The translations under genes were made by a program, and so were the position numbers. Positions 11,675-63,963 of a stretch of 64,000 nt of DNA are shown here, piece after piece. The stretch's first letter is position 1. Every line of letters starts with the position of its first letter. The DNA comes from Vulcanimicrobiaceae bacterium. GTDB lineage: Bacteria > Acidobacteriota > Terriglobia > Acidiferrales > UBA7541. The stretch spans positions 5,600 through 69,599 of the forward strand of contig DATJRU010000158.1 of assembly GCA_035504455.1 (NCBI GenBank), written 5' to 3'. Below the pieces are notes generated by a model. That model did no database searches and was not told the DNA's origin. It worked only from the letters and a program-made list of their open reading frames with translations.

Positions 11675-11677
11675 TCC

Positions 11678-12313: not shown

Positions 12314-12323
12314 GGCGGGAACG

Positions 12324-34345: not shown

Positions 34346-34741
34346 ATGAGTCTGCGTCTGAAGTTGCGGATGGAAGCAGGGCACGGAATCGCGGTTCCAC
34401 CCGGGTGGCGCATGGCGTGGTACGAACCCCAGCGCCGGGTCGGAGTCTACTATCCGGCGCCCCTGCACTGGATAGTCCGTGTCTTACGTGAATCTGCGTA
34501 CCGCCTTCGCATTGCCATCCGCGCCCCTCGCATGGAACGCGCAAACTTGCTCGCGATGCATCGCGCCCATTGCGAACGCCAACGTCTCGCGGACGAATAC
34601 GCGCGCGGCTATCTCGCTGGCTGGCACGAATGCTTTCACACCTGCCTGGAAGCCGTCGAGCAAGAAATCTCACGTGCCGACAAGGTTTGGGACGTCGGCG
34701 ATCTGCTGGCAGGCACACCAAGATCCTCCGGGGACAACTGA
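34346..34741 (+). CDS. hypothetical protein (small, island-associated)
   Basis: 131 aa. ATG preceded by AGGAGG. An AT-rich upstream region carries the tandem AATAGTA AATAGTA and a short palindrome. No family recognised. Confidence 0.5.
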   Translation: MSLRLKLRMEAGHGIAVPPGWRMAWYEPQRRVGVYYPAPLHWIVRVLRESAYRLRIAIRAPRMERANLLAMHRAHCERQRLADEYARGYLAGWHECFHTCLEAVEQEISRADKVWDVGDLLAGTPRSSGDN

Positions 34742-36658: not shown

Positions 36659-36920
36659 GACCTTTCGAACCTCCTCAGAATGGCTGTCGATGAAAGCTAA
36701 AAGTAGCGGATTCCGCTGCATACACGCACTAGAAGGAAAGTCACATCTTGGGCAGTACCGTCGTGGGACTCGCCTTCGGTACTTTAGTACTCTGGGAATC
36801 GCTTTCGTCCGTCGGTAACTATTCCGAGCCATAGCTGGCCGGTCTTACCGCAGCGCGAATCCTGACGCGTCGAACACCTCAGCGCGTGGTGATTCCGCCG
36901 CCCCTTGGTTAGAATGAGCC

Positions 36921-41511: not shown

Positions 41512-42252
41512 TCAGGGATTCACGAGGTTGGCGCGAATCGCGAACCGCACCAGTTCGCTGAAGCTTCCGAAATTCATTTTGCGCATGATGTGATTGCGGT
41601 GGCTCTCCACGGTTCGCGTCGAAACGCTCAGCGCCGCCGCCACTTCCTTGTTGCTCTTTCCTTCCGCCAGCAACTGCACCACCTGCACCTCGCGCTCCGT
41701 CAGCGGCGTGCCCGGCACGGGCCCGGCGTCGGCTGCGGGGGGCGCGGGGCCTTCTACGAAGTTCTGCGTCATCGTCCGGGCCAAGGTGCTCGTGAAGAAG
41801 GGAAGGCGCCGCCGCGCGTGATCGACCGCCGCCAGCAACTCTGTATCCGCGTCGGACTTCAGCACGTATCCCAGGGCGCCTGCGCGCAACACTTCGCGCG
41901 CCAGTTCCTCGGAAAAATGCATCGAGAGTATCAGGATTTGGGTCGAAGGCACTTCCTGCCGAATCGCGCGCGCCGCGTCCAAGCCGTTCATTTCCGGCAA
42001 CGTCAAATCCATGATCACCAGGTCGGGCTTGTTCTTCTTGACGAATTCTACGGCTTGCACTCCCGTCGTAAGCTCGCCGCAAACTTCAATGCCCGACCGA
42101 TCGTCGAACAGCGCCCGCAGCCCCCGGCGAACCACCGGATGGTCGTCGACGATGACGACGCGATAGGTCCGGCCCGCCAGCCTGTCGCTTTCCGACGCGT
42201 CAAAGAGGCTGCGTCCCGGCAGACTTCGCTTTTCGTCTTTGTTGTTTTGCAT
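41512..42252 (-). CDS. NarL/FixJ-family response regulator (receiver + LuxR HTH)
   Basis: From ORF 41512..42372, Met at 42252. VVIVDDHPVVRRGL...DLVIMDLTLPEMNG...LTEREVQVVQLLAEGKSNKEVAAALSVSTRTVESHR. Confidence 0.9.
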   Translation of the reverse strand: MQNNKDEKRSLPGRSLFDASESDRLAGRTYRVVIVDDHPVVRRGLRALFDDRSGIEVCGELTTGVQAVEFVKKNKPDLVIMDLTLPEMNGLDAARAIRQEVPSTQILILSMHFSEELAREVLRAGALGYVLKSDADTELLAAVDHARRRLPFFTSTLARTMTQNFVEGPAPPAADAGPVPGTPLTEREVQVVQLLAEGKSNKEVAAALSVSTRTVESHRNHIMRKMNFGSFSELVRFAIRANLVNP

Positions 42253-46264: not shown

Positions 46265-47041
46265 CTAGTCAGCGGACGAACGACGATAGATCTCCAGCCA
46301 AATGGCGAGACCGACAACAACGGAAAGAAGACTCGCGGCCTGAGCGTTCGTCAAACCGATGAAAGATCGCGGATTGATACGAATAAATTCGACTACAAAA
46401 CGGGCTACGCCCGTCAGCACGAGGTAGGCGGCAAAAACCAGGCCGCGACTCGCGGGCCGCTGGGGCAAGAGACGCGCGCCGATGCGCCAGAGAATCCAGG
46501 CGATAAGACAGGCGACGAAAAATTCGTAGATCGGCGTGGGCTGAACGCGCTGCGTGGTTGGAACGAGGCCGTGCGGGAAACTGATGCCCCACGGCAGGGA
46601 AGTCGGCTTACCGTAGTCGCCGTCTCCGGAAAGCAAGCAGCCGATGCGTCCGACCCCATAGCCGAGCGCAGCGGCGGGAGAACCGGCGTCCATCATCTCG
46701 AGCAGCGGAATTTTCTTCGATCGTGCGAGCCACACGAACGCGACGACGCCAGCAATCAATCCTCCAAACCATGCGAGCCCGTAACGGCTGAACAGCTCTC
46801 CGAGGGGATCGGCGAGAAGTTGCCGCGGCGTCTCCAGAACGTGATACAGCTTCGCGCCAACGATTCCCGCAAGGCAGGGAACGGCGATGAACATTTCGGC
46901 GAGCGGCGAGTCTTTGGGCGCAATACCGCGGCGAGCCATGTCCGCGCGCAGGACGTAGTAGGCGGCGACCATCGCCACGGCGACCATCAGGCCGAACGTA
47001 GGGATCGAGAACCATCCGAAGATATGGATGAAGGGATACAC
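46265..47041 (-). CDS. lgt: prolipoprotein diacylglyceryl transferase
   Basis: From ORF 46265..47167. GTG at 47041 gives (M)YPFIHIFGWFSIPTFGLMVAVAMV, with GGLIAG, GRIGCLLSGD and PTPIYEF motifs. Confidence 0.85.
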   Translation of the reverse strand: MYPFIHIFGWFSIPTFGLMVAVAMVAAYYVLRADMARRGIAPKDSPLAEMFIAVPCLAGIVGAKLYHVLETPRQLLADPLGELFSRYGLAWFGGLIAGVVAFVWLARSKKIPLLEMMDAGSPAAALGYGVGRIGCLLSGDGDYGKPTSLPWGISFPHGLVPTTQRVQPTPIYEFFVACLIAWILWRIGARLLPQRPASRGLVFAAYLVLTGVARFVVEFIRINPRSFIGLTNAQAASLLSVVVGLAIWLEIYRRSSAD

Positions 47042-47174
47042 GAGACGCCAATCTTTAACTCTTACCGTTCCACCGCAAAGTGTCAATCGCGTTGTGCGAG
47101 GTGACAGAGCCGGGAGATCGCGGTTGCCGGGGGAATAAGTTCGGATTAGACTCAGCGGCGGGTCCATTTATCGA

Positions 47175-48077
47175 ATGGTACATCTGAGCCTCCGGCGGGC
47201 CGTAATCGGACTGTGCGCGGTGCTGCTGGCCACGAACGTGGCCGCGACCGGACATGCCCGGCAGGCGTCGAATGCGGCGTCCGAGGTGACGTTCGCGCAG
47301 CTCATCGAGGCGGTCCGGGTGAGGGCCAAAGCCGCGGAGAGCACCACGGGAATGCGCGAGAGCTTCGCGGCCTTTTCAACTGCCCACCAACTGTCGCCAG
47401 CGAGCCTCCGCTACTCGGATTTTGTGGTGATACGCCTGCTGTTCGAAGCAACGAGGGACGCGGGCTTCTGGAACCTTCACTGGCAGATCACGAACCAGCC
47501 GCCCAATTCGGACAACATTTGGCGGCAGTGGCAGGGCGTGCAAAAGCCCTCGCCGCTCAGGCCTACGGCTTCGGCCGAGTGCGACGAGCTCTCGGCGCTC
47601 TACGCCTTTCTGGTCGAGCGGGCCGGAGTAAAAGGCGTCGGCTTGTTCTGGCCGTATGCAAATCATACGGTAGCGGTGTGGGTGGTACGGCCTACGGACC
47701 GGCCGGTCTTTCGCGTGGTGGTGCCGACGTCGCAGATTTTTCTGGATGAAACGGATTTCTTCGACACCAAGAAATTCAATCCGTGGAGCCAGAAGACGAT
47801 TTACGAGTACACGCGCCGGGACGTTCCGGACACGTTTGACCTGCCGAAGAGCCTGGTCGACTATTTCGTGCGACAGATGGACCGGTACGCCGGAGCGTCC
47901 GACGTGGCGCTGCAAAAGCTGCGATATCTGCGAGAAGGCGTGTTCCTGGACGCCTGGCCGCCGCACGAGGCGGCGCGTGTGGCGCACGAGTGGCTGGGCC
48001 ACCCGGGATTCACGTCCCCCGAGGACGCGAAGGCGGTACAGAACTTCGTGGACGACATGCACTCCGATTCTCAATGA
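47175..48077 (+). CDS. secreted hypothetical protein, possibly transglutaminase-like cysteine peptidase fold
   Basis: Signal-like N-terminus. SAECDELSALYAFLVERAGV...ANHTVAVW resembles a Cys...His core. The assignment is weak. Confidence 0.4.
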   Translation: MVHLSLRRAVIGLCAVLLATNVAATGHARQASNAASEVTFAQLIEAVRVRAKAAESTTGMRESFAAFSTAHQLSPASLRYSDFVVIRLLFEATRDAGFWNLHWQITNQPPNSDNIWRQWQGVQKPSPLRPTASAECDELSALYAFLVERAGVKGVGLFWPYANHTVAVWVVRPTDRPVFRVVVPTSQIFLDETDFFDTKKFNPWSQKTIYEYTRRDVPDTFDLPKSLVDYFVRQMDRYAGASDVALQKLRYLREGVFLDAWPPHEAARVAHEWLGHPGFTSPEDAKAVQNFVDDMHSDSQ

Positions 48078-48199
48078 GGAAGCCGCCACCCGCAGTACGC
48101 AGCACTTGAAACCGGACGACGAAGAGGTGCATCGTATACGCAGAGTTAGAGCGGCCCCCGTCCCGGCTGCCCTCCTAACCGGGACCGGAGGGTGCGTAT

Positions 48200-49411
48200 A
48201 TGATGCACTCCACACCAAACAGCCAACTGAGCAAAAATACAAGAGATAGTCTCGCTGGAAGGCCGGCGGCGCCCGCCGCACGTGGCTTGGCGCGGAACGG
48301 CTTCGCGCGAGGGCTGCTGGTGGCTGCCAGCGCTGTTGCGCTGGTGTTATGCCCTCAGGGCGCGTTTGCGCAGCACGGCGGAGGAGGCGGTCACGCAGGT
48401 GGCGGTGGTCATTTTGGCGGCGGCGGGCACTTCGGCGGCGGGGGCGGACACTACAGCGGGAGTTTCGGGGGGTCGCACGGACATGCGACTTCCGGGGCGC
48501 GCTCCGGTTTCGCGGGATCGGTCGCGCGGCCGAGCAGCGGTCCTATCACGGTTGTGCACGGGAGTGCGCCGGCAGGCTGGCACGGGGCGCCTCCATCGAG
48601 TACGCCGAGACCGGTAGGCACCGGCGGGTTTGTGGCGGGCGGAGCGCCTCCTACACCGCAGCACGTGACGATCGGTTTTCCTCCAGAGAGCGGGCATGGG
48701 ATGGTGAGCGCGGGCGGAGGAGTGACGACAGGTGCGGGCGCGGATGGGCGCTCGCCGATTGTGGGTACGCGCGGAGGCGAGGTACTGAGCTTTTCGGGAC
48801 AGGGGCATGAGATCTGGCAGAATTCGCCGCAGTCGCGATCGATCGAGGGACAGCGACCGCGGCCCGTGGGCCCACACCATTTCGGCGGGGGATTTTTCGG
48901 GCCGGGGTATGGGTACGGATATGGCTTTGGAGGATTTTATCCCTGGGGCTTTGGCTGGGGGCTGGGACTCGGATTTGGGTTCGACTGTGATTCGCTGTGG
49001 AATTTTGGCTGCGGGACATACGGATATCCGGGCTACGGTTACTACGGACCGTACGAACCGGGAGCCTATCTGTACTCCGGGAGCGGCGACGACAACGGGT
49101 CGGTGACGGATTCATCCGGGGACTACGGCGCTTATTCGAACTCGCCTTCGCCAGATGCAGGCTCCGGCTCCGGCGCGGCAGGCCCGAATACGGCGGCGAA
49201 CACTAGCGCGGTTATCTATCTGAACGACGGGACGAGCTTTGCGGTGACGGACTACTGGGTGTCGGATTACCAGTTGCACTACGTCGTCGACGGGGCGCGG
49301 GAGAACGTGATCGCCCTGGACCAGATCGACGTGCAGCGAACAGTGGATGAGAATGCGGCACGAGGGGTGAACTTCACGCTGCGGCCGGCGCCGGATTCGG
49401 AGCAAAGGTAG
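48200..49411 (+). CDS. secreted Gly/His/Tyr/Phe-rich low-complexity protein with ordered C-terminal domain
   Basis: Signal-like LLVAASAVALVLCPQGAFAQ, then GGGGHAGGGGHFGGGGHFGGGGGHY and GYGYGYGFGGFYPWGFGWGLGLGFGF. The C-terminal roughly 80 aa are non-repetitive. Confidence 0.6.
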   Translation: MMHSTPNSQLSKNTRDSLAGRPAAPAARGLARNGFARGLLVAASAVALVLCPQGAFAQHGGGGGHAGGGGHFGGGGHFGGGGGHYSGSFGGSHGHATSGARSGFAGSVARPSSGPITVVHGSAPAGWHGAPPSSTPRPVGTGGFVAGGAPPTPQHVTIGFPPESGHGMVSAGGGVTTGAGADGRSPIVGTRGGEVLSFSGQGHEIWQNSPQSRSIEGQRPRPVGPHHFGGGFFGPGYGYGYGFGGFYPWGFGWGLGLGFGFDCDSLWNFGCGTYGYPGYGYYGPYEPGAYLYSGSGDDNGSVTDSSGDYGAYSNSPSPDAGSGSGAAGPNTAANTSAVIYLNDGTSFAVTDYWVSDYQLHYVVDGARENVIALDQIDVQRTVDENAARGVNFTLRPAPDSEQR

Positions 49412-49462
49412 GGGAAGAAATGAAAATTACCTTGGACGATTTCGATATACACAAAAAAGCAC

Positions 49463-49491
49463 TTGACAGAAATAGTGACTTCGAGTACAAT
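49463..49491 (+). promoter_or_regulatory. consensus sigma70-type promoter at the left border of the phage-like block
   Basis: TTGACA (49463-49468), a 17-nt spacer, then TACAAT (49486-49491), in an AT-rich patch. About 300 nt upstream of the ATG at 49794. Confidence 0.5.
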
Positions 49492-49793
49492 TCGTTTCGT
49501 TATCCTCGAAAAGTGCGCAGACAGCAGTAACCTCCGAACGGCGTTTTTCCTGTAAGAAACTCAAGAGATGGAAGTTGAGCGCGTAATTGCGCTTCGCGCG
49601 CGCGAAGCAACCGCGGACGTGTGTTTGCACGGGCCGCGTGAGTTTTGCGCACGAGTTTCCGCTTGACGCACACCCTGGCCTGCGTCCGCGGGTGGGGGCG
49701 GTCTCTCCGATCCGCCCCCACGAAGATTCAGTCGAAGACCGCAGCGGCAGAGTTGCGGAGCACGTCGCACGATCATTTTCCCGGGAGAGATTC

Positions 49794-50162
49794 ATGCCGA
49801 ATTACAATGCGCAGGTACCGCCGTATTCGATTTTTCCGGGTGACGTGGCGCTCGCGTTCAACAGCGAAGCGCCGACCGCGGGGCAGGCGAGCCAGCAGTT
49901 CGCGCTGCCGAACTACGCGGGCATGCCCAACAACGGACGCACGATCGTGTGGCAGACGATGTATGGGACGTCGCCCTCGGCGATCAGCGTGTCGCTGCAG
50001 GAGGCGATGAACGACGTCGACGCGCAGTACGCGACGGTGGACACGTCGACGGCGACGGGAGGCGAGTCGCGGACGGTGACGAACGTGAGGGCGAACTTCG
50101 TGCGAGCGAAGGTTACGTCGATCACGGGCGGGGCCGGCGTGGTCGTACAGATTTTAGGGTAG
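49794..50162 (+). CDS. hypothetical protein (first gene of phage-like block)
   Basis: From ORF 49587..50162. ATG at 49794 after GGGAGAG. 122 aa, MPNYNAQVPPYSIFPGDVALAF... No family recognised. Confidence 0.55.
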   Translation: MPNYNAQVPPYSIFPGDVALAFNSEAPTAGQASQQFALPNYAGMPNNGRTIVWQTMYGTSPSAISVSLQEAMNDVDAQYATVDTSTATGGESRTVTNVRANFVRAKVTSITGGAGVVVQILG

Positions 50163-50200
50163 GGGAACCACCGCGGCACATGGGGTAGCATAGCCTCGGC

Positions 50201-50731
50201 ATGCGGAGAGGCTTTGCGGCGGCAGTGGCGATGATTGTTGCGGGTAGTGCGGTGGGACCGAGGCTGGCGCGAGGCGAGGCGACTCGGGAGGCGACGCGAG
50301 CGGAGGAGTCTTTGCAGGCGACCGCTGGGCCGGCAGGACAGAGTTCGCCGCAAAAGCCGACTGAGGGTCAGCCTGCGAGCCAAGGGCAGAGCGGGCAGGC
50401 GACTCCGGCGGCGGCGCACAGTCTCCACTTCGTCACCGTAAAATTCGATTACGACTTCGGGAAAACGCCGGCATGCTCGGCCAAGGTGAAAACGGCGTGC
50501 GTGGAAGAGTTTGTCGCGTACGACATTTCGGCGGGAGTGAAGAACCGGTCAAAGCTCTTCGAGATCGGCCTGCCAGCTAAGCCGATAGGGTTCGTGCCAG
50601 GGATCACCGGAAAAAGCCCGAAGAAGCTGGATTTCGAGTTGGGCAAGCACTGGATTTCGGTGGTCGCGCGGGAACCTGACGGGACCGAATCGAGACACAA
50701 GGCTTGCACGACCTGGATTGTGATTCAGTAG
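50201..50731 (+). CDS. hypothetical secreted protein
   Basis: 176 aa. Signal-like MRRGFAAAVAMIVAGSAVG, a Q/S/P-rich linker, then a beta-rich C-domain (HFVTVKFDYDFGK...). Confidence 0.55.
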   Translation: MRRGFAAAVAMIVAGSAVGPRLARGEATREATRAEESLQATAGPAGQSSPQKPTEGQPASQGQSGQATPAAAHSLHFVTVKFDYDFGKTPACSAKVKTACVEEFVAYDISAGVKNRSKLFEIGLPAKPIGFVPGITGKSPKKLDFELGKHWISVVAREPDGTESRHKACTTWIVIQ

Positions 50732-50806
50732 AGCGACTTCAGTTGGATTCGGACGACTAGGACTGCGGGCCTTCCTTTTCCTCGCTACAAGCTACGGCAA
50801 GACCGC

Positions 50807-51235
50807 ATGGCACGCTGCGTCAGCTTCGTTCAATCGCCGGAACACACGGCGGGATGGGGGCGATGCGAGCGGAGCGCGCGTGCGAGCGACATTTTATGCA
50901 CCGTCCATCGGGACGCGATCAATGGCGTCATGATGGGCATCCTCCATCACAGCGAACCCTACCATGTCAGCAAAAAGCAGATCGAAGAAGCGAGCCGGGA
51001 AGCGGGGACGCGGCGGCTTGCATTCGAAACGGCCCTCGCGGCGCTCAACGTCCCGGCGGGGCATGTCGTCCGGCCGGGCTACCGGCGGTTGCGGAGAATC
51101 CGAGCTAGAGCAAAACAAAAGCGGGAAGCACGACGCGCCAGGGACGGCGGACGCTCCGCCGGAAAAGAAGCGGCGGAAGCGGCTGCGGAAGCGCGTGCCG
51201 ATCGGCGAGGCACTGCGCAAGCAGGGGCTGGATGA
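50807..51235 (+). CDS. hypothetical Cys/His-containing protein; 3' end doubtful (see frameshift finding)
   Basis: ORF as given. The N-terminal roughly 95 aa look protein-like (CVSFVQSPEHTAGWGRCE...LCTVHRD). The tail is Arg/Ala-rich and overlaps a better-looking frame. Confidence 0.35.
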   Translation: MARCVSFVQSPEHTAGWGRCERSARASDILCTVHRDAINGVMMGILHHSEPYHVSKKQIEEASREAGTRRLAFETALAALNVPAGHVVRPGYRRLRRIRARAKQKREARRARDGGRSAGKEAAEAAAEARADRRGTAQAGAG

Positions 51236-51476
51236 GCACACGGTTGCGGAACGATACGCGAATGTTGTGTCGCGACTGGAGAAGAATCCTTCGAATGTGG
51301 GGAGCGGCGACAAGCTGCTAGTGGAAATTCTGAAGGAGTGCACGCGGCAGATTGAGGCGGCGCAGCCGGTGGGCGAGGGTGGAGTTCAGGTGCAGCTGGT
51401 TCATAACGTGGAGCGGCCGGCGCGCAAGGCGGCAACAGGAGTAGAAACGGACGAAGAGAAAAATGCTTGGCAGTGA
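51063..51476 (+). CDS. hypothetical protein upstream of terL (small-terminase position)
   Basis: Frame of ORF 50964..51476, first ATG at 51063. KKRRKRLRKRVPIGEALRKQGLDEHTVAERYANVVSRLEK. Its stop overlaps the terL GTG as GTGA. The function is inferred from position only. Confidence 0.4.
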   Translation: MSSGRATGGCGESELEQNKSGKHDAPGTADAPPEKKRRKRLRKRVPIGEALRKQGLDEHTVAERYANVVSRLEKNPSNVGSGDKLLVEILKECTRQIEAAQPVGEGGVQVQLVHNVERPARKAATGVETDEEKNAWQ

Positions 51477-53098
51477 AGCGGATCGCGCCTGGGAAGTTCA
51501 TCCGGGACACGGGGAAACTTATGGTGACGATCGCGTCGGGTCTCGAGCGGTGGGCGGCGGAGGGGCGGGCGCGAGTGGACCTGGGCTACCGGCCGTTTCC
51601 GAAGCAGCAGCAATTCCACGCGTCGGCGGCCAAGTACCGGCTGTTCGGCGGGGCGGCTGGGCCGGGAAAGACAAAGGCGCTGCTGATGGAGGCGATTCTG
51701 CAGGCGCACGAGCATCCGGGCGCGAACACGTTGCTTTTGCGGCGGACGTTTCCGGAGCTGGAGCAATCGCTGCTGCTCTACTTTCGGCGCGAGGTGCCGC
51801 GAGAGTTGTACAAGAGCTTTCACGACTCAAAACACGTGGTGACGTGGTGGAACGGGTCGACGACGCGATTCGGATATTGCCAGAACGAGAGCGACGTTTA
51901 CCAGTATCAGGGCGGGGAATTCCTTTTCATCGGCGTGGACGAGCTGACGATGTTCACGCTGCGCCAGTGGCAATTCCTAACGAGCCGCAACCGGTGCCCG
52001 GCGCCGGGGGCGTTTCCGTCGATGGCGGGCGCGACGAATCCGGGGAATATCGGGCACGCGTGGGTGAAGTCGCTGTGGATTGAACGGCAGCCGGCCGCAG
52101 GAATGGAACACCCGGAAGAGTATGACGCGAGCGATTATGAGTTTATTCCAGCGCGGGTTTGCGACAACCCGATTTACGCGCAGGACGAGAATTACCTGAA
52201 GACGCTGCGAGCGCTGCCGTCGCATTTGCGGCGAGCGTTCTTGGACGGCGACTGGGACGTATTCGCGGGGCAGTACTTCGACCGGTTCGATCCGGCGCGA
52301 CATGTGGCGCGCGCAGAAACGATCGACTGGAAGCCGTGGTGGCGGCGGTGGATTTCGGTCGACTGGGGATTCGAGCATCCGGCGGCGGTTTACTGGCACG
52401 CGGCGGTGCCGGGGATTGAGAACGGCGAGGGCGAGGCGAACCGCGTGGTGACATACCGCGAGTACGTGACGCATCGAACCCCACCGCGGGAACTGGCGCG
52501 GGAAATTATTGCGCGCAGCGTCGAGACGAGCGCGAAAGCGAAAAGAGATCGTTCGCGCTTCTACACTGGCGCTCCGGACGACGGCGTCGCGGAAACTGGC
52601 GGTGAGAGGGAAAAGATCGAAGCCGTCTATCTTTCGCCGGATGCGTTTGCGCGGAGGACGGACGAGGCGTCGATCGCCGAGCAGATGGGCGATGTTTTCG
52701 CGGCGGCGGGGCTGCCGCGTCCTGTGCCGGCGGACGACGACCGGGTGGGCGGCTGGATGCTGATGTACCAGATGCTCGATGCGGGGGAGTGGCTCCTCGC
52801 CGAGAATTGCATCGAGCTGATCCGAACGCTGCCGAATTTGATTCGCGACCCGGCGCGCGTGGAGGACGTCGAGAAGACGGATGGCGACGATGCGGCGGAT
52901 GCGGCGCGATACGGACTGAAGTCGAGGTACGCGGTACGTCGCAGCAGCGAACGGCGGATGCCGCTCGCAGACCGGTTGGCGGCGAGGACAGTGTCCGCCG
53001 ACCCGACGATTCGGGCGATCCAAGCGCGCAAGGCCGAGATCGAAGAGAGGCAGGGCGCGCGACCGGTTTCCTTCTTGCATCGACGGCGGTGGTGGTAG
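51473..53098 (+). CDS. terL: phage terminase large subunit
   Basis: Walker A FGGAAGPGKTKAL, Walker B FLFIGVDELTMF, nuclease-type WISVDWGFEHPAAVYWHA. Start taken at the GTG at 51473 (ORF track 51467). Confidence 0.85.
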   Translation: MKRIAPGKFIRDTGKLMVTIASGLERWAAEGRARVDLGYRPFPKQQQFHASAAKYRLFGGAAGPGKTKALLMEAILQAHEHPGANTLLLRRTFPELEQSLLLYFRREVPRELYKSFHDSKHVVTWWNGSTTRFGYCQNESDVYQYQGGEFLFIGVDELTMFTLRQWQFLTSRNRCPAPGAFPSMAGATNPGNIGHAWVKSLWIERQPAAGMEHPEEYDASDYEFIPARVCDNPIYAQDENYLKTLRALPSHLRRAFLDGDWDVFAGQYFDRFDPARHVARAETIDWKPWWRRWISVDWGFEHPAAVYWHAAVPGIENGEGEANRVVTYREYVTHRTPPRELAREIIARSVETSAKAKRDRSRFYTGAPDDGVAETGGEREKIEAVYLSPDAFARRTDEASIAEQMGDVFAAAGLPRPVPADDDRVGGWMLMYQMLDAGEWLLAENCIELIRTLPNLIRDPARVEDVEKTDGDDAADAARYGLKSRYAVRRSSERRMPLADRLAARTVSADPTIRAIQARKAEIEERQGARPVSFLHRRRWW

Positions 53099-53789: not shown

Positions 53790-54203
53790 ATGCCATTTAT
53801 TGGTGGGCGATATCACATTAACCCGGCGATGGGCGCGGCGCTCGAAGCGGCCCGAGAGGCGGAAGCCGCACTGCAGGCGCTGGAGCTGAGAGCTCAGGAG
53901 CAGCGCGCCTATGCCGATAACAGCGACTCCGATCGGGACGGCGACGTCGATCAGGCTGCCGCCGATTCAAAGCCGGGTACGGGGCCGGTGCATCGGGTGG
54001 AGATCGAAGCGGCTGAGGTGGTGCCATCTCATTCGGGGCGCGCCGCGCGAGGGTTCGTGGCCCGGGTTCATCGCTGCGGAGCGAACGGCGGGGGCACGGA
54101 GGCGATTCGAGGAGCTTCGACTTCGCCGCCGGAAACGCACGTATTTTCGGACCACCGCGACCTGGTCAGCTTTCTGGGCGACGAACTGGGCAAAGGGAAG
54201 TAG
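53790..54203 (+). CDS. hypothetical protein
   Basis: From ORF 53751..54203. ATG at 53790 after GGAGG. MPFIGGRYHINPAMGAALEAAREAE... Confidence 0.45.
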   Translation: MPFIGGRYHINPAMGAALEAAREAEAALQALELRAQEQRAYADNSDSDRDGDVDQAAADSKPGTGPVHRVEIEAAEVVPSHSGRAARGFVARVHRCGANGGGTEAIRGASTSPPETHVFSDHRDLVSFLGDELGKGK

Positions 54204-54225
54204 GTCGCCGCTTCTGCGCTCCCAC

Positions 54226-55272
54226 ATGGGAGGTTGCTGTCCTACAATGGCGGGCCAGGGAGCGCACTTGGGAGACTGGCAGTTTCCGCAGCAACCGCCC
54301 GGGCCGATCTACGGCGGGCGACGGCGTCGCGTGATCAACGTGAGCGGGCGGAGCCCGTGGCCGCGGTATCTGGCATGGGTGGTCGTGATCGTGGCGGCGT
54401 TGCTCGTGGCCCGGCTCGCGTGGCAAGGCTCGCGATATTTTTCGGAGCGACAGCAACCTGCTGCGAAGCGGGGAACGGCCGGGCCGAGCAGCGACGGAAG
54501 CAACCACGGACGCGTTTACGCGTCGTGGGAGCGGGACATGCTGCTCGCGATCAACCAAGGCGTTCAAGACGCCGGGGCGGGAAGAATGGACGCCGCGGAG
54601 GAGGATGTGGACCGGATGGCGTCGATGGCGACGGAAGGCCGTCTGGCATCACGGGCGGCACAGCCGGAGTTCTACGAGGTGTCGCTGGGCGGGCTCGACC
54701 GAATTCTTACGACGGCTTCTTCCGACGCCGACATGATGGATCACGTGACGCAGGCGCGAGTGGCGCTTGCGGAACTGCGATCGTCAGAAAATGACGCGGC
54801 AAACTCGGAGGCGACGAGCCAGGATGCGTCGCCGATTTCGACAAGCGGGAGGGCTGCGAAGCGAGACACGGCCAAAGTATCGATCGATGCGCCGCGGGAG
54901 CTCGCGGCGGACAGTCTGCTGGACCCTTCGACGCTCGGCGGGAAGCACCTGGACGCGACGTTTATGCCAGACACCGCGGAAGTACTGCTGCCGCCGGCGA
55001 CGCGGGCGTTCGCTGACAACGTGCGCGTGGAGAACCTAACGATCGAAGGAGCGGCACAGACGCTCGACGGAATTCATTGGCGGAACGTGACGTTCGTGGG
55101 GACGCATCTGCGCTATGAGAGCGGGGAATTGGATCTCGACGACGTGCGTTTCGTGAGTTGCAGGTTTGGGTTTCCGTCGGACGAGAGCGGCGCGCGGCTT
55201 GCGAATGCGATCGCGCTCGGGAAAACGTCGATCAAGATCGAGCACATCGAGACGCAGCCGACGACACCGTGA
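54226..55272 (+). CDS. membrane-anchored hypothetical protein with beta-helix/pentapeptide-like C-terminus
   Basis: From ORF 53911..55272, Met at 54226. One TM (YLAWVVVIVAALLVARLAW). C-terminus NVRVENLTIEGAAQTLDGIHWRNVTFVGTHLRYESGELDLDDVRFVSCRF. Confidence 0.45.
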   Translation: MGGCCPTMAGQGAHLGDWQFPQQPPGPIYGGRRRRVINVSGRSPWPRYLAWVVVIVAALLVARLAWQGSRYFSERQQPAAKRGTAGPSSDGSNHGRVYASWERDMLLAINQGVQDAGAGRMDAAEEDVDRMASMATEGRLASRAAQPEFYEVSLGGLDRILTTASSDADMMDHVTQARVALAELRSSENDAANSEATSQDASPISTSGRAAKRDTAKVSIDAPRELAADSLLDPSTLGGKHLDATFMPDTAEVLLPPATRAFADNVRVENLTIEGAAQTLDGIHWRNVTFVGTHLRYESGELDLDDVRFVSCRFGFPSDESGARLANAIALGKTSIKIEHIETQPTTP

Positions 55273-55843: not shown

Positions 55844-58297
55844 ATGTCCACAGAGACGCGAATTCCGAATGCTAATCCGGCGATTGTGCCGGTTGAAGGG
55901 CCGGTAGCCGCCAGTGCGGTGAAGAGGGATTCTTCAGCCGACGAAGACCAAAACCGTCGGCTTCAGGATGACGGCGCTGGCCGAGGGACGAGCAGTGACT
56001 CGGCGCGAGTGGAGACCAGTGCGAACCCGTATGGGCCTAACAACGAGCAACTGCCGGAGCGGTTGCAGGAAGCGCTGCGGCGGCTCGTGTTCCAGTTCTC
56101 GACCGAGTCGGAACTTTCGCGGCGGCAGGAAATCCGGCGAATCAAGCAGGCGCACCAATTCTGGCGCGGACTGCAATACCTGTGGTGGGACGAGCGCGAC
56201 CAGAACTGGCACCTGCCGTTCGAGCAGAAGCTGATGGACAACAGCTCGCTCGAGGACATGCCGCGATACGAATTCGTCACGAACATTTATCAGGCGTTCG
56301 GGCTTTCGATCATTTCGGTGCTGTCGCAGGATGTGCCGCGGGTGCGGTTTTTCCCTTCGTCGGCGCAGGCGGAGGAGGATGTGGCTGCGGCCAAGGCGGC
56401 GACGGAAGTGGCGCAGCTTGTCGAGCGGAACAATCGCATCGGGAATTTGATCGTGGACGAGGCGTTTCACCTGTGGACTGGCGGGAAGGTTGGGGCTTAC
56501 GTGCGGTTCGTGGTCGACGGGCAGCGATTCGGATTTCATCCCGAGACGGAGGTCGGGATGAGGGAAGTGAAGATCGGCAGCGACTCGTATGTTTGTCCAG
56601 AATGCGGGGGGGAGACGGAAGGAGGGGCGAGGGATGAGGGACGCGGGACGAGGGAAGGAAGGAATACGGCTGGCGGCCACGATGCGCAGCGCGTCGCGGC
56701 GACGTGCGCGCAGTGTGGGGCGTCGCTGAGTGAGGAGGATTTTGTTGCGGCGGAGACGGTGACGGTGCCGGCGGCGCAGACGCGGTTGCGCGTTGCAAAC
56801 GGCGAAGAAGTGGTGACGATTGCGGGCGGGCTCGAGCTGAAGACACCGCCTTGGGCGAATGAGATGCATGAGTATCCGTACCTGCAATGGAACATGGAGG
56901 TGCACCAGGCGCGACTGCGCGCTGCCTATCCGCACGCGGCGGACAAGATCGGACCGCCGGTGGCGACCTCGATGCAGGAGTACGAGCGGCTTGCGCGGCT
57001 GGCGCAATCGCAGGGTGGGCCGCTGACCGAGGGCGGCGACTTCAACATCAACCTGATTACATTCCAGCGGACGTGGCTACGGCCGTGGGCGTTTTTCGCG
57101 CTGGACGACAAGTCGCTGCGGGACGAATTGCTGCAGCTCTTTCCGGATGGCGCGTACGTGGCGTTTGCCGGGGACGCTTACTGCGAATCGCGAAACGAAA
57201 ACATGGACGACCACTGGCGGGTGCTGCATGCGCTGCCGGGAGATGGATCGAGCGGGCGGCCGGCGCTTGGAGATGTCCTGATCAGCGTGCAGGAGCGTTT
57301 CAATACACTTTCGAATTTGCAGATCGAGACCTACGAATACGGGATCCCGCCCATTTACGCGGACAGCGAAGTGCTCGATTTCGATTCGCTGCAAAACCAA
57401 ACCGCGGAACCCGGGGCACACTACCCGGCGCGCGCGAAGGCGGGTCAATCGTTGGCGGCAGGATTCTTTCAGCCGGAGCCGGCGCAGGTGCCTCCGGACT
57501 TGGCCGAACACGCCGCTAGCTTGATGGGGCCGATCGCGCAGTTCCTGACGGGAGCATTTCCGGCGCTTTTCGGCGGGGCGATGGCGAACAACGACACGGC
57601 CGCGGGATATTCGATGGCACGCGATCAGGCGATGGGGCGCATCGGGCTCGTGTGGCGGCGAATGAAGTTCTTCCATGCGGACGTGATGCTGCTGGCGGTC
57701 GATTGCTTCCGGCAAAACCGGCCGAACGACGTGGAGGTGACGCTGCTGGGCGCAGGGGCGGCGTTCGAATCGAAATGGATTCGACTGGCGGACTTGAAAG
57801 GCAACCTCTTCAGCTATCCGGAGACCGACGAGCAGTACCCGACGCTATGGTCGCAGCAGCGCGCGGTGATGATGCAGTTGCTCGCAAACCCCGATCCGCA
57901 GATCCAAGCCGTGCTCGGGCATCCGGAAAACATGGCACTGCTGAAACGGCTGATCGGGCTCGAGGAGTTCGTGATTCCGGACGAGGAATCGCGAACGAAG
58001 CAGTACCGAGAAATCGCCCAGATGGTAGGCGAAACGCCGGTGGTCCAACGGGACGATGCGACGGGCGTGGAGTTGCTGCTGCCGACGATCGTGCCGGACG
58101 AATTCGCGGACAACCATGCGGTGGAACTCGAGATTTGCATGCGATGGTTTTCGTCCGATGCAGGGCAGGTGGCGAAGATCGAAGCGCCGGCAGGATATGC
58201 GAACGTCCGGGCACATGCGATGTTTCACCGCGAGTACATGCTGAAACAGCAGCGAGAGGCACAACAGCAGGCAGCGGCGTTGACGCCGCCTCGGTAG
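55844..58297 (+). CDS. putative phage portal protein with an internal Cys4 zinc-ribbon insertion
   Basis: 817 aa, the largest ORF between terL and scaffold/capsid. Assigned by size and position only. CPECGG...CAQCG lies at about 56594-56716. Confidence 0.5.
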   Translation: MSTETRIPNANPAIVPVEGPVAASAVKRDSSADEDQNRRLQDDGAGRGTSSDSARVETSANPYGPNNEQLPERLQEALRRLVFQFSTESELSRRQEIRRIKQAHQFWRGLQYLWWDERDQNWHLPFEQKLMDNSSLEDMPRYEFVTNIYQAFGLSIISVLSQDVPRVRFFPSSAQAEEDVAAAKAATEVAQLVERNNRIGNLIVDEAFHLWTGGKVGAYVRFVVDGQRFGFHPETEVGMREVKIGSDSYVCPECGGETEGGARDEGRGTREGRNTAGGHDAQRVAATCAQCGASLSEEDFVAAETVTVPAAQTRLRVANGEEVVTIAGGLELKTPPWANEMHEYPYLQWNMEVHQARLRAAYPHAADKIGPPVATSMQEYERLARLAQSQGGPLTEGGDFNINLITFQRTWLRPWAFFALDDKSLRDELLQLFPDGAYVAFAGDAYCESRNENMDDHWRVLHALPGDGSSGRPALGDVLISVQERFNTLSNLQIETYEYGIPPIYADSEVLDFDSLQNQTAEPGAHYPARAKAGQSLAAGFFQPEPAQVPPDLAEHAASLMGPIAQFLTGAFPALFGGAMANNDTAAGYSMARDQAMGRIGLVWRRMKFFHADVMLLAVDCFRQNRPNDVEVTLLGAGAAFESKWIRLADLKGNLFSYPETDEQYPTLWSQQRAVMMQLLANPDPQIQAVLGHPENMALLKRLIGLEEFVIPDEESRTKQYREIAQMVGETPVVQRDDATGVELLLPTIVPDEFADNHAVELEICMRWFSSDAGQVAKIEAPAGYANVRAHAMFHREYMLKQQREAQQQAAALTPPR

Positions 58298-58497: not shown

Positions 58498-59343
58498 CTA
58501 GAGGGTGCGGTCGACGCCGCCGGAGACGCGCGCGCCGTAAAAGCTCCTGGTGACCGGGGGCGGAGCGACGAGCCGGACGACGTGGGCGAGGCGCTCGGGC
58601 TGGAATGGCTTGGCCATGCACACGACGGCGCCCATCTGGTGGCTGGCGGTGTAGTCGGCGGGTTGGGCCGAGCGCGTGAGCAGGATGACCGGAACCCGCT
58701 GAAGGCGTTCGTTGCGCTTGACGATGGCGCAGAGGTCGTGGCCGGAGATTTCTTCCGACTCAACTTCGGCGATGAAAACGTCCGGAACGTTGCCGCGGAG
58801 AAATTCGAGGGCTTCGTTGGCGGTTTTCACGACGACGAGAGTGTAGCCGTCCTGGCTGAGGGTGTTGCGCATCATGTCCGCAACACGAGCGTCGGATTCC
58901 AGCGCAAGAACGACTGACTGACGCTGCTCCCTGGCGGGCCCACCTGAGCTGGCGTAGCCGCGCTTCCCGTCGCCGCCGGAGTCCACTTTTGCCTTCATGA
59001 ACTGGACGGCAATGGCGAATTTCCCTTCCTGCGGGCCGACGCGGACGATTTCAGCCGGCTGGGATTGATTGAGGGCGTTTGGGCCGGGAGAGTATGGAAA
59101 CGTGACGTCGAGCATTTGGCCCTCGGCGTAACCGGGGCGCGAGGCGATAAAAAAAAGGCCGTCCCGCGAGACGTCGATGGTGGTGCAGATTTCTTCCAGG
59201 CCTTCCGGAGAGTTCGTGGGCTGGATGCGGAGTTGAGCGCTGATCTTGGCGCGACGGCGCCGACGGCGTTCGATTCCATTGGGAGCCGGGCCGGATGATC
59301 CTGTGGTCTTGCCTTTTGCGGGGACGACGGTCGTCAAACTCAT
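58498..59343 (-). CDS. PilZ domain + CheY-like receiver (Glu at phospho-acceptor position) protein, copy 2
   Basis: 281 aa. RRRRRRAKISAQLRI...TIDVSRDG (PilZ RxxxR / DxSxxG). Receiver VVLALESD...DVFIAEVESEEISGHDL...VILLTRS...VCMAKP. Paralog of the 35672-36658 product. Confidence 0.75.
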   Translation of the reverse strand: MSLTTVVPAKGKTTGSSGPAPNGIERRRRRRAKISAQLRIQPTNSPEGLEEICTTIDVSRDGLFFIASRPGYAEGQMLDVTFPYSPGPNALNQSQPAEIVRVGPQEGKFAIAVQFMKAKVDSGGDGKRGYASSGGPAREQRQSVVLALESDARVADMMRNTLSQDGYTLVVVKTANEALEFLRGNVPDVFIAEVESEEISGHDLCAIVKRNERLQRVPVILLTRSAQPADYTASHQMGAVVCMAKPFQPERLAHVVRLVAPPPVTRSFYGARVSGGVDRTL

Positions 59344-59506
59344 TCACCACCTCAGAGGATTCACGGGGGCGACGCACCTAGGCTGTCGGGCTGGGCGTTG
59401 GGAGGGGTTCCCCGCTAAAGAGAGATTCGCAGAAGGCGGCGGCGAGGGAAATAGTACCTTGGTGCCAATCTGAATCGGGGTAGTTTGCGCGTAAACACGC
59501 GAGTGA

Positions 59507-60759: not shown

Positions 60760-62034
60760 ATGGCACAGATGCAGAACGCCCAATCGGTTGCGCTGCAACT
60801 CGAGAAGGTGCGAGACAAACTTCCCTTGCTCTACGAGCGAGACGATATCCTGCTGACGATGATCCAGCAGCGCGGGGACGTGGAGCGCGTCAGCTCGCGC
60901 AACATGCGCCTTCCACTGCAGATTCGTCCGGGAGGCAAGGCGGGCCTGGCGAACATGGACGGCGGAGACCTCGGGCGCGGGTCGGGGACGATTTACGACG
61001 TGGCGCAGGTGACACCGGTGTTTTTCCGGCACGCGGTGGAAATCACGAAGCTGGTGGAATATGCATCGAACGCTCCCGAGAAGGCCATCGAGAACGCGGC
61101 CAAGCGAGAAGTGAAGAACGCAATGGTGCAGTTCCGGTCGTTTCTCGACAAGGTGATGCAGACGAACGGCAACGGCGTGCTTGGGACGATCAGCTCGATT
61201 ACGACGAGCGGGTTGCCCTCCGGTGTAGCGGCGCAGTTCACGATGGCGAAGCCGCCGGGGGCGCAGCTTTTCTACTACAACCAAACGATTCAGGTATACG
61301 ATCCGACGCTGACGACCAACCGGGGCTCGGCGAATATTTTGCTGGTCGATCCGTTTAATTCACTGATTCAGGTGGACGGGCTGCCGACGGGAACGAGCGC
61401 GAACGACCTGATCGTGCATGACGGACTCACCGGGGCACAGCCCGTTTCGCTCTTCGGCATTCTCTATCACCAGACGAACGCGACGACGGGTACTTGGCTC
61501 AACTTGAACCGGGCGACATATCCGGTGGAGCTGGCCACGCCGCGGGTTAACGGCAATAACTCCGCGATCACGCCTGGTGCTGTGCGGCTGGCTATCAACA
61601 AGGTGCGGAAGTCCTTGGGCACGAACCAGGTGAGCAAGCTGATCGCCTACACGTCGCTCGAACAGGAGCATCAGTGGGAGCAGCTCGGCGTCACAATTTC
61701 GCAAATCATCAAGGAAGGAGCAGGCGGACGCGCAAGCGATCTCGATCTGCTCTTCACGGGCGAAAAGTCGATGGCGGGAGTGCCGATCAAGTCGAGCATC
61801 AATGCGAATCAATCGCGGATCGACTTCCTCGATCTCTCGCACTGGGGCCGTGCCGTGATGCAGGACATCGACTTCTACGATGTCGGCGGGCAAACGGTGT
61901 TTCCGATTTACGGCGCAAGCGGCGGGCTGGCGTCGGCGTATATCTTCTACTTCGTCACGGGCTTCCAGGTTTGGAATGAGTCGCCGCGGTCGGGCGCCTA
62001 CATCGACAACCTGGCGATTCCGACCGGGTACTAG
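60760..62034 (+). CDS. putative major capsid protein
   Basis: 424 aa ORF following the scaffold-like gene. Its size and position are typical of a major head protein. No motif-level confirmation is possible here. Confidence 0.55.
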   Translation: MAQMQNAQSVALQLEKVRDKLPLLYERDDILLTMIQQRGDVERVSSRNMRLPLQIRPGGKAGLANMDGGDLGRGSGTIYDVAQVTPVFFRHAVEITKLVEYASNAPEKAIENAAKREVKNAMVQFRSFLDKVMQTNGNGVLGTISSITTSGLPSGVAAQFTMAKPPGAQLFYYNQTIQVYDPTLTTNRGSANILLVDPFNSLIQVDGLPTGTSANDLIVHDGLTGAQPVSLFGILYHQTNATTGTWLNLNRATYPVELATPRVNGNNSAITPGAVRLAINKVRKSLGTNQVSKLIAYTSLEQEHQWEQLGVTISQIIKEGAGGRASDLDLLFTGEKSMAGVPIKSSINANQSRIDFLDLSHWGRAVMQDIDFYDVGGQTVFPIYGASGGLASAYIFYFVTGFQVWNESPRSGAYIDNLAIPTGY

Positions 62035-62232: not shown

Positions 62233-62748
62233 ATGAAGATGCTCCTCGCGGTGGCGACTCTGTTTTTCGCAATGGCTTTGGGTGCTCCGGCGTCGCGCGC
62301 ACAGGATGACGCGGCCCTGGCCGATCCCGCACTGGTCGCAGAGGCCGCTACACCCGTACAGACGATCTCGGCCGCCGAAGTCCTGCGCATGATGCAGGAC
62401 AAAGATGCGAAGTTTGCACTTGTCGATACGCAGCCAGTGGACGGCTATGCGGATGGACACATTCCCGGAGCGATCAGCTATCCGTGGGCGATGCAGATCA
62501 AGTCTTTCCCCATCCCGCTGCCGCGCGACCGGGTACTGATCTTCTACGGCTCCTGCCCCAACGATACGAGCGACACCGTCAAGAAGCTTGCCGAGTTCGG
62601 CTACTTCAACGTGAAGGTGATGGACGGTGGCTGGTACAAGTGGCTGGAACTGAAGTATCCGAGGACCAATTCCGCGAAGGACTCTTCGCCGGACCTGTCG
62701 CAGCTGACGGGTTCGCGCGCCAGCAGCGCCAAGGCAGTTTCCCGATAA
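62233..62748 (+). CDS. secreted rhodanese-domain protein
   Basis: From ORF 62158..62748. ATG at 62233 after GGAGG. Signal peptide MKMLLAVATLFFAMALGAPASRAQ. FALVDTQPVDGYADGHIPGAISYP...VLIFYGSCPNDTS carries the rhodanese active-site Cys loop. Confidence 0.75.
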   Translation: MKMLLAVATLFFAMALGAPASRAQDDAALADPALVAEAATPVQTISAAEVLRMMQDKDAKFALVDTQPVDGYADGHIPGAISYPWAMQIKSFPIPLPRDRVLIFYGSCPNDTSDTVKKLAEFGYFNVKVMDGGWYKWLELKYPRTNSAKDSSPDLSQLTGSRASSAKAVSR

Positions 62749-62750
62749 AC

Positions 62751-63332
62751 CTAGTTTGCAGGCGGATGTTCGGCTTCAATTTTGGCGTAATTTAGGCGCA
62801 GCTGTTCCATAGGTGCGTCGGTGGATCCATTTGTGCCGCCGCCACGAATTGAGATGACGGTTGCGTCGGTCAACTTGTAGCGAGCGGTGGCCTCGCCACC
62901 ATTCGTAAGCACGATTTCGACTTCCCGGAAATGCTGGTGGCTGGTCATAGCGCCCAGCAGGCCTAAGGACGACATATCCCGGTCCTTGATGATGACAATC
63001 GGCGGGTGAACCGACTTGGCGTCTGTGGAAGTCGAACCGGCATTGGATTCTTTCGCGAGTTGGCTGATTTCTGACGCAGTCGGCAGAGTCACCTGGCGAA
63101 AGGGAATCCAGCCGAAATATGCGGGGTCGGTGGATTCGCCGGCCATTTGACGGCCGCTTGCAGTGACGACTCGCATGTAACCGTTGCCCTGGGCGTAAGC
63201 GGCGGCTCCGGAGAGCGATAACAGTACGGCCGCGAGTGGCAAGATACTGCGACAGGTCGCCACACGCCCCCTTCGAAGCCTGCTTGGCAGGCCCCCTACA
63301 AAGCAGACGCGGCGATTTCGGTTTCCGTGCAT
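62751..63332 (-). CDS. Hcp-fold (T6SS tube protein-like) protein with N-terminal signal peptide
   Basis: From ORF 62751..63632. ATG at 63332 after GGAGGA. ILPLAAVLLSLSGAAAYAQ, then YMRVVTASGRQMAGESTDPAYFGWIPF...IIKDRDMSSLGLLGAM...EQLRLNYAKIEAEH, which parallels the Hcp1 pattern as I remember it. Confidence 0.55.
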   Translation of the reverse strand: MHGNRNRRVCFVGGLPSRLRRGRVATCRSILPLAAVLLSLSGAAAYAQGNGYMRVVTASGRQMAGESTDPAYFGWIPFRQVTLPTASEISQLAKESNAGSTSTDAKSVHPPIVIIKDRDMSSLGLLGAMTSHQHFREVEIVLTNGGEATARYKLTDATVISIRGGGTNGSTDAPMEQLRLNYAKIEAEHPPAN

Positions 63333-63396
63333 CAGTTCCTCCGACGACTCAAGCTCCGGTGATTGTCCTACAGATCGAAGCGCGGGCCATTTTTTC

Positions 63397-63963
63397 GTGA
63401 TTCGAGTGACGCGAGAAACGCACGAGGCGCCGGCCTCCATCCAGCAACGACTGGCGAATGCCGGGGGATTCAACAGATACGGCGAGCCGAATTTTCGCGT
63501 GGTGTGGGGAGGCTCGCGGCTGACGTGGATCGGCGGGCGTTGGGTCGACCGGGACTGCAACGGCAACATTGTCCGAGAAACGATCGAACTTCGGCGCGCG
63601 CCCAAATATATTCCGCTGGAGCGTTGGCACATCGAGCGCTGGGTGCCACCGGAGTTCTACGGCGCGCCCGAGCGATGGTATGCGGACACGGTAGAGATCG
63701 AAGACGGTATTCGCATTCCAGCGCTGGGGCCGTATCCTTCGCGCGGCGAGTACGAACATTGCTTCACGCTCGCGGACGCAAACGGTGAGTTTATGATGCT
63801 GGACGGAGAGGCCTGCGACTGGGTGGTGCGAGCCGTTGAATGGTCGCGGAGCCAGTCGCGAGAAGCCAGGCGGGCCGCGCTTGGCGCGCGCGAATCGCGC
63901 CGCGAACGCAATTTCAATCGCGCGGCCGACGAAATTCTGGAAGATACGTGGTGTAGGTCTTAA
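63397..63963 (+). CDS. hypothetical phage-associated protein
   Basis: 188 aa. NRYGEPNFRVVWGGSRLTWIGGRW...HIERWVPPEFYGAPERW. No family name recalled. Confidence 0.5.
   Translation: MIRVTRETHEAPASIQQRLANAGGFNRYGEPNFRVVWGGSRLTWIGGRWVDRDCNGNIVRETIELRRAPKYIPLERWHIERWVPPEFYGAPERWYADTVEIEDGIRIPALGPYPSRGEYEHCFTLADANGEFMMLDGEACDWVVRAVEWSRSQSREARRAALGARESRRERNFNRAADEILEDTWCRS

Follow-up and report, generated by a model that had tools for sequence, protein, structure and literature searches.

The DNA considered here is a window of 64,000 nucleotides (positions are counted from its first letter) from contig DATJRU010000158.1, a segment of an acidobacterial chromosome with a G+C content of 57-68%, which an identical metagenome contig in ENA continues for a further 22 kb. 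The gene in question, referred to below as PilZ-REC, lies on the minus strand at 58498-59343, encodes a PilZ domain followed by a receiver-like domain, and is placed antisense among the genes of a phage-derived head cluster. The gene and the features that belong to it are as follows.

58498-59343, minus strand: PilZ-REC, a predicted PilZ-pseudo-receiver gene of 281 amino acids (open reading frame; Pfam PilZ and Response_reg; homologs in large number)
58990-59271, minus strand: PilZ domain, amino acids 25-118 (Pfam), with RxxxR (R27-R31) and D57-x-S59-x-x-G62
58576-58911, minus strand: receiver-like domain, amino acids 145-256 (Pfam), with E193, S150 and E149 at the positions of CheY D57, D13 and D12, and with T223 and K245 kept
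59344-59506, no strand: intergenic region that separates the divergently oriented PilZ-REC and scaffold-position genes (comparison of loci)
59451-59457, minus strand: invariant GTACTAT (ATAGTAC on the plus strand), about 105 nucleotides upstream of the PilZ-REC start codon

The original prediction had described a minus-strand open reading frame of 281 amino acids with PilZ signatures and a CheY-like receiver, and the reading frame is present as claimed. Profile searches support both domains: PilZ (PF07238) matches amino acids 25-118 at an E value of 9.4e-10 with 39.2 bits, against a curated cutoff of 22.5, and Response_reg (PF00072) matches amino acids 145-256 at an E value of 6.5e-15 with 55.7 bits. 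More than 1,173 homologs were found, the closest 120 of them at 58-100% identity, and the two signatures that had been picked out by eye, RxxxR (R27-R31) and DVSRDG (D57-V-S59-R-D-G62), are invariant or nearly so, being kept in 118-120 of these 120. A PilZ domain with its motifs intact in this manner should bind cyclic di-GMP (c-di-GMP). The receiver held up as a profile match but not in function. Glu occupies the position of the CheY phospho-acceptor D57 (E193 here) in 119 of the 120 homologs, and also in the paralog discussed below; Ser, Pro or Ala stands in for D13 across the homologs (S150 here) and Glu for D12 (E149), with CheY T87 (T223) and K109 (K245) retained. Alignments to PDB sequences independently put E193 at the acceptor Asp. 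In all, 81 receiver sequences in PDB match PilZ-REC at an E value of 0.001 or below, and receiver structures of FrzS are among them.

With Glu in place of the acceptor Asp, and Ser, Pro or Ala in place of the metal-binding Asp13, the receiver-fold domain appears to be a pseudo-receiver, incapable of the usual phosphorylation, that would act in output or interaction independently of phosphorylation; its acceptor-site Glu might imitate the phosphorylated form. The protein has neither a DNA-binding nor an enzymatic domain, and therefore its output must be protein-protein contact, like that of CheY-type single-domain regulators and of PixA from Myxococcus xanthus. C-terminal to the receiver domain is a strictly conserved HVVRLxAPPP tail. 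PilZ-REC belongs to a large, conserved acidobacterial family of PilZ plus receiver proteins (>1,000 sequences) whose phospho-acceptor is naturally Glu, and the family provides a natural test of a receiver fold driven by c-di-GMP and not by phosphorylation.

The genes around PilZ-REC, with the evidence for each, are the following.

46265-51476, no strand: fixed left flank, comprising lgt (46265-47167, minus strand), g300, g403, g191, g176 and g170 (Pfam LGT, synteny)
51467-53098, plus strand: terminase large subunit, TerL (phrog_979, 2e-41; Pfam Terminase_3)
53790-55272, plus strand: two conserved cluster genes of 137 and 341 amino acids, g137 and g341 (gene calls; syntenic in most loci)
55844-58297, plus strand: 817-amino-acid portal-position protein (position, size, conservation, and a related protein at the corresponding place in the phage-like contig L210)
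59507-60637, plus strand: scaffold-position gene, 371-376 amino acids, fast-evolving (position between the portal-position gene and the capsid gene; conserved across the cluster)
60760-62034, plus strand: HK97-fold major capsid protein (AlphaFold2, Foldseek, phrog_14242)
62233-62748, plus strand: rhodanese gene, a variable lodger (Pfam Rhodanese, 1e-14; 23 of 72 species loci)
62751-63335, minus strand: Hcp-like protein, a variable lodger (Pfam T6SS_HCP, 6.5e-15; 18 of 72 species loci)
63397-63963, plus strand: conserved cluster gene of 188 amino acids (g188), followed beyond the window (L003, 10611-17126) by cluster genes of 251, 1631 and 238 amino acids (g251, the giant gene and g238)

The claim that phage head genes flank PilZ-REC is borne out by the terminase and by the capsid, whereas the names portal and scaffold rest on position. 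TerL is 30-36% identical to annotated phage large terminase subunits over more than 80% of its length. An AlphaFold2 model of the capsid protein built from 86 diverse representatives reached a predicted local distance difference test (pLDDT) score of 90.4, and a model from close homologs alone (85-96% identity) gave 38. The top Foldseek matches in PDB and BFVD were phage capsids at probability 1.0 (in PDB, SU10, cyanophage A-1(L), Mic1 and 6tb9, the capsid of the gene transfer agent (GTA) of Rhodobacter capsulatus, RcGTA), and the best hit in BFVD was the major capsid protein of Arthrobacter phage Jasmine (E value 6e-27, template modelling score 0.77-0.81). In addition, 31 of the 86 family members match phrog_14242, annotated as 'major head protein'; profile search of PDB sequences and tblastn against isolate phages gave no capsid matches.

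For the 817-amino-acid protein, no portal homology was found in Pfam, PHROGs, a profile search of PDB, phage tblastn or with a more diverse profile, and hhalign gave no match to portals from those Arthrobacter phages whose TerL is nearest. The only part of it that matches PDB is a CxxC...CxxC zinc-ribbon insert at about amino acids 243-320, which resembles zinc fingers and in which C251, C254, C288 and C291 are invariant. Likewise, the scaffold name gains no support from PHROGs, Pfam, sequences in PDB, tblastn against phages or profile-profile comparison. The 137- and 341-amino-acid genes have no family match, and the 251-, 1631- and 238-amino-acid proteins downstream have no informative ones. 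In one locus (L015, 14068-14620), which has a capsid 98% identical, the giant gene is down to about 130 amino acids between g251 and g238; either the giant protein is dispensable or this cluster is starting to erode. The rhodanese and Hcp-like proteins have hydrophobic N-termini that look like signal peptides by eye, which is unusual for Hcp. The Hcp fold is that of the phage tail tube, and the Hcp-like gene could conceivably be a relic tail-tube gene.

A free phage-like relative clarifies the origin of the cluster. Two contigs, 48.5 and 50 kb long and each from a different sample (L210 and L211; G+C 53.6%), carry a distant capsid relative, and all of their genes are co-directional and tightly packed. 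The order in L210 is TerL, small genes, proteins of 767, 277, 437 and 77 amino acids and the capsid, and then proteins of 242, 261, 406 and 259 amino acids followed by a 1239-amino-acid virion protein. Homologs of the window's genes stand there in the same order, namely TerL (39% identity), capsid (33%), g188 (29%), g251 (28%), the N-terminus of the 1631-amino-acid protein (36%) and g238 (32%); the 817-amino-acid protein is 34% identical over ~680 amino acids to the 767-amino-acid protein in the portal position, from which the zinc-ribbon insert is absent. No homolog of the scaffold-position protein was found in L210 at an E value of 0.01 or below, and PilZ-REC is absent from both contigs, despite the same module order. 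Because these homologs are collinear, the whole stretch from TerL to g238 derives from the packaging and virion module of a phage of the L210 kind.

The cluster is widespread. At least 207 species-representative genomes carry the capsid gene, and the best 80 of these 207 are all Acidobacteriota metagenome-assembled genomes (MAGs), mostly from Ca. Acidiferrales (class Terriglobia), closed chromosomes included. The order in nearly all of them is TerL, g137, g341, portal-position gene, PilZ-REC on the opposite strand, scaffold-position gene and capsid gene, and after the capsid a variable segment, g188, g251, the giant gene and g238. Wherever the left flank is visible, distant genomes included, g176-g191-g403-lgt lies next to the cluster, whether the latter is intact or eroded. 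Identity to the window is highest for the capsid (92-98% in 80 species) and is 79-96% for g238, 71-90% for the portal-position protein (79-91% across species in a separate comparison), 63-94% for TerL, 50-81% for PilZ-REC and 46-79% for the scaffold-position protein, with the host gene lgt at 64-69%.

Divergence at the DNA level was estimated by the Nei-Gojobori method as proportions of synonymous and non-synonymous differences (pS and pN). For every cluster gene pS is 0.57-0.70, which is near saturation, and lgt has 0.62. The capsid gene has a pN of 0.039 at a pS of 0.565 (pN/pS ~0.07, 80 species); pN rises to 0.10 in the portal-position gene and to 0.26 in PilZ-REC (pS 0.63 and pN/pS ~0.4 for 70 species against the window, or dN/dS 0.23 with Jukes-Cantor correction). 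Saturated synonymous sites combined with low pN therefore indicate long-term purifying selection and no recent transfer. This is at odds with the proposal that a PilZ-REC module travels with phage DNA, as there is one chromosomal site wherever the flank is visible and a synonymous divergence as saturated as that of lgt.

Host genes are found at several junctions of the cluster (CN_hydrolase plus agmatine deiminase, cytochrome c, rhodanese and Hcp-like genes), and in some genomes the CN_hydrolase and agmatine deiminase genes sit between the portal-position gene and PilZ-REC. The left border yielded no integrase, replication or lysis gene by family annotation, and several small open reading frames there are without a family match; upstream of this border are lgt and a PAS histidine kinase. 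The structural genes are chromosomally fixed, vertically inherited and selected (pS ~0.6, pN 0.04-0.26), and from these comparisons the cluster appears to be a domesticated or fossil element that is immobile and vertically inherited, and not a mobile prophage. It is best seen as a domesticated element, possibly a GTA-like one, because strong purifying selection keeps it in most species. No prior description of it was found in the searchable literature on acidobacterial GTAs or domesticated prophages and on prophage-borne PilZ genes. With a capsid more conserved than the flanking lgt, the cluster has a strong claim to be a domesticated phage element, so far undescribed, of one of the most abundant soil phyla, and is itself a more remarkable object than the PilZ-REC gene.

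Such loci are also listed as viral. In IMG/VR (L091-L203), the capsid gene has 87 confirmed contig matches and the portal-position gene has 38; these contigs are fragments of the chromosomal cluster and not free viral genomes, and their listing inflates the number of 'Acidobacteria viruses' that studies of peat and soil report. Some cluster-bearing 'MAG TPA_asm' records go under the names Baltobacteraceae, Dormiibacterota, Limnocylindrales, Binatia, Verrucomicrobiia or Aquilonibacter (L011-L090; P0001, P0242, P0291), and on records of an acidobacterial cluster these labels are probably taxonomic mislabels. One MAG (TC-S_metawrap_bin.120) has a capsid gene on each of two contigs (L026 and L027), 95% and 96% identical to that of the window, and thus has either two capsid copies per genome or a strain-mixed bin.

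The distribution of PilZ-REC within the cluster is narrower. Loci were assigned to a near clade, with a capsid at least 85% identical to that of the window, and to a far clade, with 63-81%. In 75 of 79 near-clade loci, and in 68 of 72 when species genomes alone are counted, PilZ-REC separates the portal-position gene from the scaffold-position gene and is invariably on the opposite strand. The original prediction had named a lack of conservation as a ground for its refutation, and this strongly conserved arrangement does not refute it. It is found in none of 60 far-clade clusters, which are otherwise the same, and four near-clade species have an intact cluster and no PilZ-REC. Because it is missing from L210 and L211 and from the 60 far-clade clusters, PilZ-REC appears to be a later, clade-specific insertion.

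PilZ-REC and the scaffold-position gene are adjacent and divergent in about 60 of 70 species, 140-500 bp apart. The intergenic region is variable except for a single invariant block, GTACTAT, which occurs in exactly those 75 of 79 near-clade loci that have PilZ-REC and in none of 61 far-clade loci, usually as a single copy per 21 kb. It remains beside PilZ-REC where a 2-kb insertion parts this gene from the scaffold-position gene, and it is upstream of 71 of 72 metagenomic PilZ-REC orthologs. GTACTAT is therefore a probable core promoter (with a TACTAT-like -10 element) or operator of PilZ-REC. Scans of the region for sigma-70 promoters and terminators gave results at chance level. A c-di-GMP riboswitch or structured leader upstream of PilZ-REC was considered and rejected, there being no Rfam match and no conserved RNA fold; sigma-54 and extracytoplasmic-function (ECF) readings of the block were rejected by eye, as the -12 GC is absent and the spacing is wrong.

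Whether PilZ-REC depends on the surrounding genes can be judged from loci in which those genes are decaying. The PilZ-REC alignment was scanned against metagenome contigs, which yielded 25 loci with 6 kb on both sides. Nine of these are eroded clusters (L242, L249, L256, L269, L243, L287, L247, L251 and L228), in which TerL, portal and capsid genes are absent or fragmentary and the scaffold-position gene is either gone or 133-203 amino acids long, with the g176-g191-g403-lgt flank kept. In all nine, PilZ-REC is full-length with its motifs, and among them it has a pN/pS of 0.165 at a pS of 0.53. A clean deletion of 5.6 kb is seen in L251 relative to L239, and L247 and L251, which are 97-98% identical in DNA, have different deletion remnants; deletions in related lineages thus seem to have been independent. 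Because PilZ-REC survives in eroded loci and intact clusters exist without PilZ-REC, there appears to be a double dissociation, in that the cluster needs no PilZ-REC and PilZ-REC needs no cluster.

Overall, we regard PilZ-REC as probably a host c-di-GMP adaptor that is lodged in, and outlives, a fixed phage-derived cluster. According to this explanation, it would be a small cytoplasmic adaptor that serves the host and not the surrounding phage-derived genes. It would have been inserted, together with its own promoter region, into an ancient cluster beside lgt, in the gap that separates the portal-position from the scaffold-position gene, and would now form an independent transcription unit that is kept for c-di-GMP signalling in the host. 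Its place in a head cluster would then be a historical accident, lasting because the flanking genes are themselves conserved.

Several points weigh against this explanation. All 25 PilZ-REC ortholog loci have one or more cluster genes, or remnants of them, no farther than 6 kb away, and among them the orthogroup is never away from this site, which is predicted by inertia or by a functional link. The divergent adjacency of PilZ-REC and the scaffold-position gene is kept in ~85% of species, whereas other junctions gather insertions. The eroded loci are metagenome assemblies, in which mis-assembly could mimic deletion, although this is countered by several independent contigs that share the same or related deletion junctions.

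The most serious competitor is that PilZ-REC is a dedicated regulator of the genes around it: it would sense c-di-GMP, and its receiver-like domain would switch the assembly or expression of the adjacent head genes of a GTA-like particle, either through binding to the scaffold or portal protein or through transcriptional interference from the antisense gene, thereby coupling particle production to the biofilm or motility state. There is a precedent in that c-di-GMP levels are reported to modulate RcGTA production in Rhodobacter capsulatus (PMC9143464, PMC9552610). A position and orientation that 68 of 72 species keep, for the most part with divergence from the scaffold-position gene, would be expected of such a regulator, as would the confinement of the orthogroup to this locus; moreover, a cluster under strong purifying selection is presumably functional. 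However, PilZ-REC is intact and under purifying selection at loci that have lost the terminase, portal, capsid and scaffold genes by deletion, and intact clusters do without it in four near-clade species and at 60 of 60 far-clade loci. The protein also has no DNA-binding domain, and unrelated host genes lodge in the cluster in the same way. That PilZ-REC regulates the production of particles would be the more exciting result, but we consider it unlikely, and the same facts make the dedicated sensor of phage or defence behaviour in the original prediction improbable as well. A fuller version, in which the cluster from the terminase to the 238-amino-acid gene is an undescribed domesticated capsid system whose production is gated by c-di-GMP through PilZ-REC in the Ca. 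Acidiferrales clade, is somewhat more doubtful still; if it were true, a second, cluster-independent role of PilZ-REC would explain its survival in eroded loci.

The original prediction had also suggested lysogenic-conversion cargo, that is, a moron of a mobile temperate phage that rewires host motility or biofilm. The opposite strand and an upstream element of its own are typical moron anatomy, many such loci are listed as viral contigs in IMG/VR, and the host type IV pilus cluster that had been pointed out in this context is confirmed, with pilM, pilN, pilO and secretin (pilQ) genes at 9972-15262. Cargo that serves the host is indeed the nearest of the options first proposed, but what carries it is not a lysogenic phage but a phage fossil, or a domesticated element, that has become fixed: this carrier occupies the same chromosomal site wherever the left flank is visible, with saturated synonymous divergence equal to that of lgt, it has no family-annotated integrase, replication or lysis gene at its left border, housekeeping genes are inserted within the module, and PilZ-REC is absent from the free-phage-like L210 and L211. 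A mobile moron is accordingly very improbable. Finally, an anti-phage defence or abortive-infection sensor in a prophage remnant hardly deserves credence, for although such genes often lodge in prophage remnants and PADLOC gave a weak match to PD-T4-6 (E value 3e-6, receiver domain only), this match is generic receiver similarity, no effector (nuclease, TIR or pore) is adjacent, and the genes nearby are either metabolic lodgers or encode phage structural proteins.

A second gene of this type is present elsewhere in the window.

35672-36658, minus strand: paralogous PilZ-like plus pseudo-receiver gene (40% identity; receiver E value 3e-14; PilZ below cutoff)

The open reading frame itself spans 35672-36832, and public gene calls start it at 36658 (328 amino acids). 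It had been called a close paralog of PilZ-REC, which is too strong for 40% identity over 268 amino acids. The same architecture holds for the layout and for the receiver, but the PilZ domain scores 18.8 bits, below the Pfam cutoff of 22.5. The C-terminal stretch GA(I/V)VCMAKP...HVVRL(L/V)APPP is common to both reading frames as stated and proves to be a family-wide motif. Phage-style genes were thought to adjoin the paralog, but its neighbours are ordinary chromosomal genes, namely a luciferase-like oxidoreductase, a Zn-ribbon protein, a NuoI-like ferredoxin and a pyridine-nucleotide oxidoreductase. PilZ-REC may have arisen by duplication within the family of this chromosomal paralog. The sequence AATAGTAC has its only other exact copy in the window at 34275-34282 (0.17 expected by chance), in an AT-rich stretch ~65 nucleotides upstream of the reading frame at 34346-34741 and 1 kb from the paralog; this copy may be coincidental, as the extended motif is not shared. 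A PAS-HisKA_3 histidine kinase at 42200-44599, adjoined by a LuxR-type response regulator, belongs like the pil genes to the ordinary host genes of the window.

Among described architectures, that of PixA of Myxococcus xanthus is the closest to PilZ-REC, but there are also clear differences. PixA joins a PilZ domain to a receiver, shows c-di-GMP binding in vitro, affects motility polarity, and acts on protein localisation and not on transcription (PMC8316039). Compared by described architecture, both have an N-terminal PilZ domain with RxxxR and DxSxxG, a C-terminal receiver and no output domain, and both are encoded by orphan genes with no adjacent kinase. PixA, however, keeps the phosphorylatable Asp180 and its other phosphorylation residues, and its D180E variant is inactive (PMC8316039); in the PilZ-REC family the acceptor is Glu and D13 is replaced by Ser, Pro or Ala, and the phage-derived head-cluster context of PilZ-REC has no counterpart in PixA. 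Pseudo-receivers such as FrzS are similar in that the receiver fold is kept as an interaction module and phospho-acceptor chemistry is lost. Unlike these, the receiver of PilZ-REC is fused to a PilZ domain, which would provide a small-molecule input instead of phosphorylation.

The cluster, for its part, resembles RcGTA in being a terminase-portal-scaffold-HK97-capsid cluster that is chromosomally fixed, vertically inherited over a large clade, selected and lost in some lineages, and the RcGTA capsid is among the structural matches of the window's capsid. In contrast to RcGTA, the acidobacterial cluster is known from genes alone, belongs to another phylum and is interrupted by an antisense gene and by host genes, and no sequence-level relation to RcGTA genes was found; it also differs from GTAs in a capsid that is 92-98% identical where the flanking lgt is 64-69% identical. 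With prophage morons, PilZ-REC has in common that it is an extra gene on the opposite strand, with an upstream element of its own, between structural genes and absent from a related phage. It differs from them in that its carrier appears to be immobile, and in that PilZ-REC would have been inserted after fixation, in one host clade, and outlives the structural genes among which it lies.

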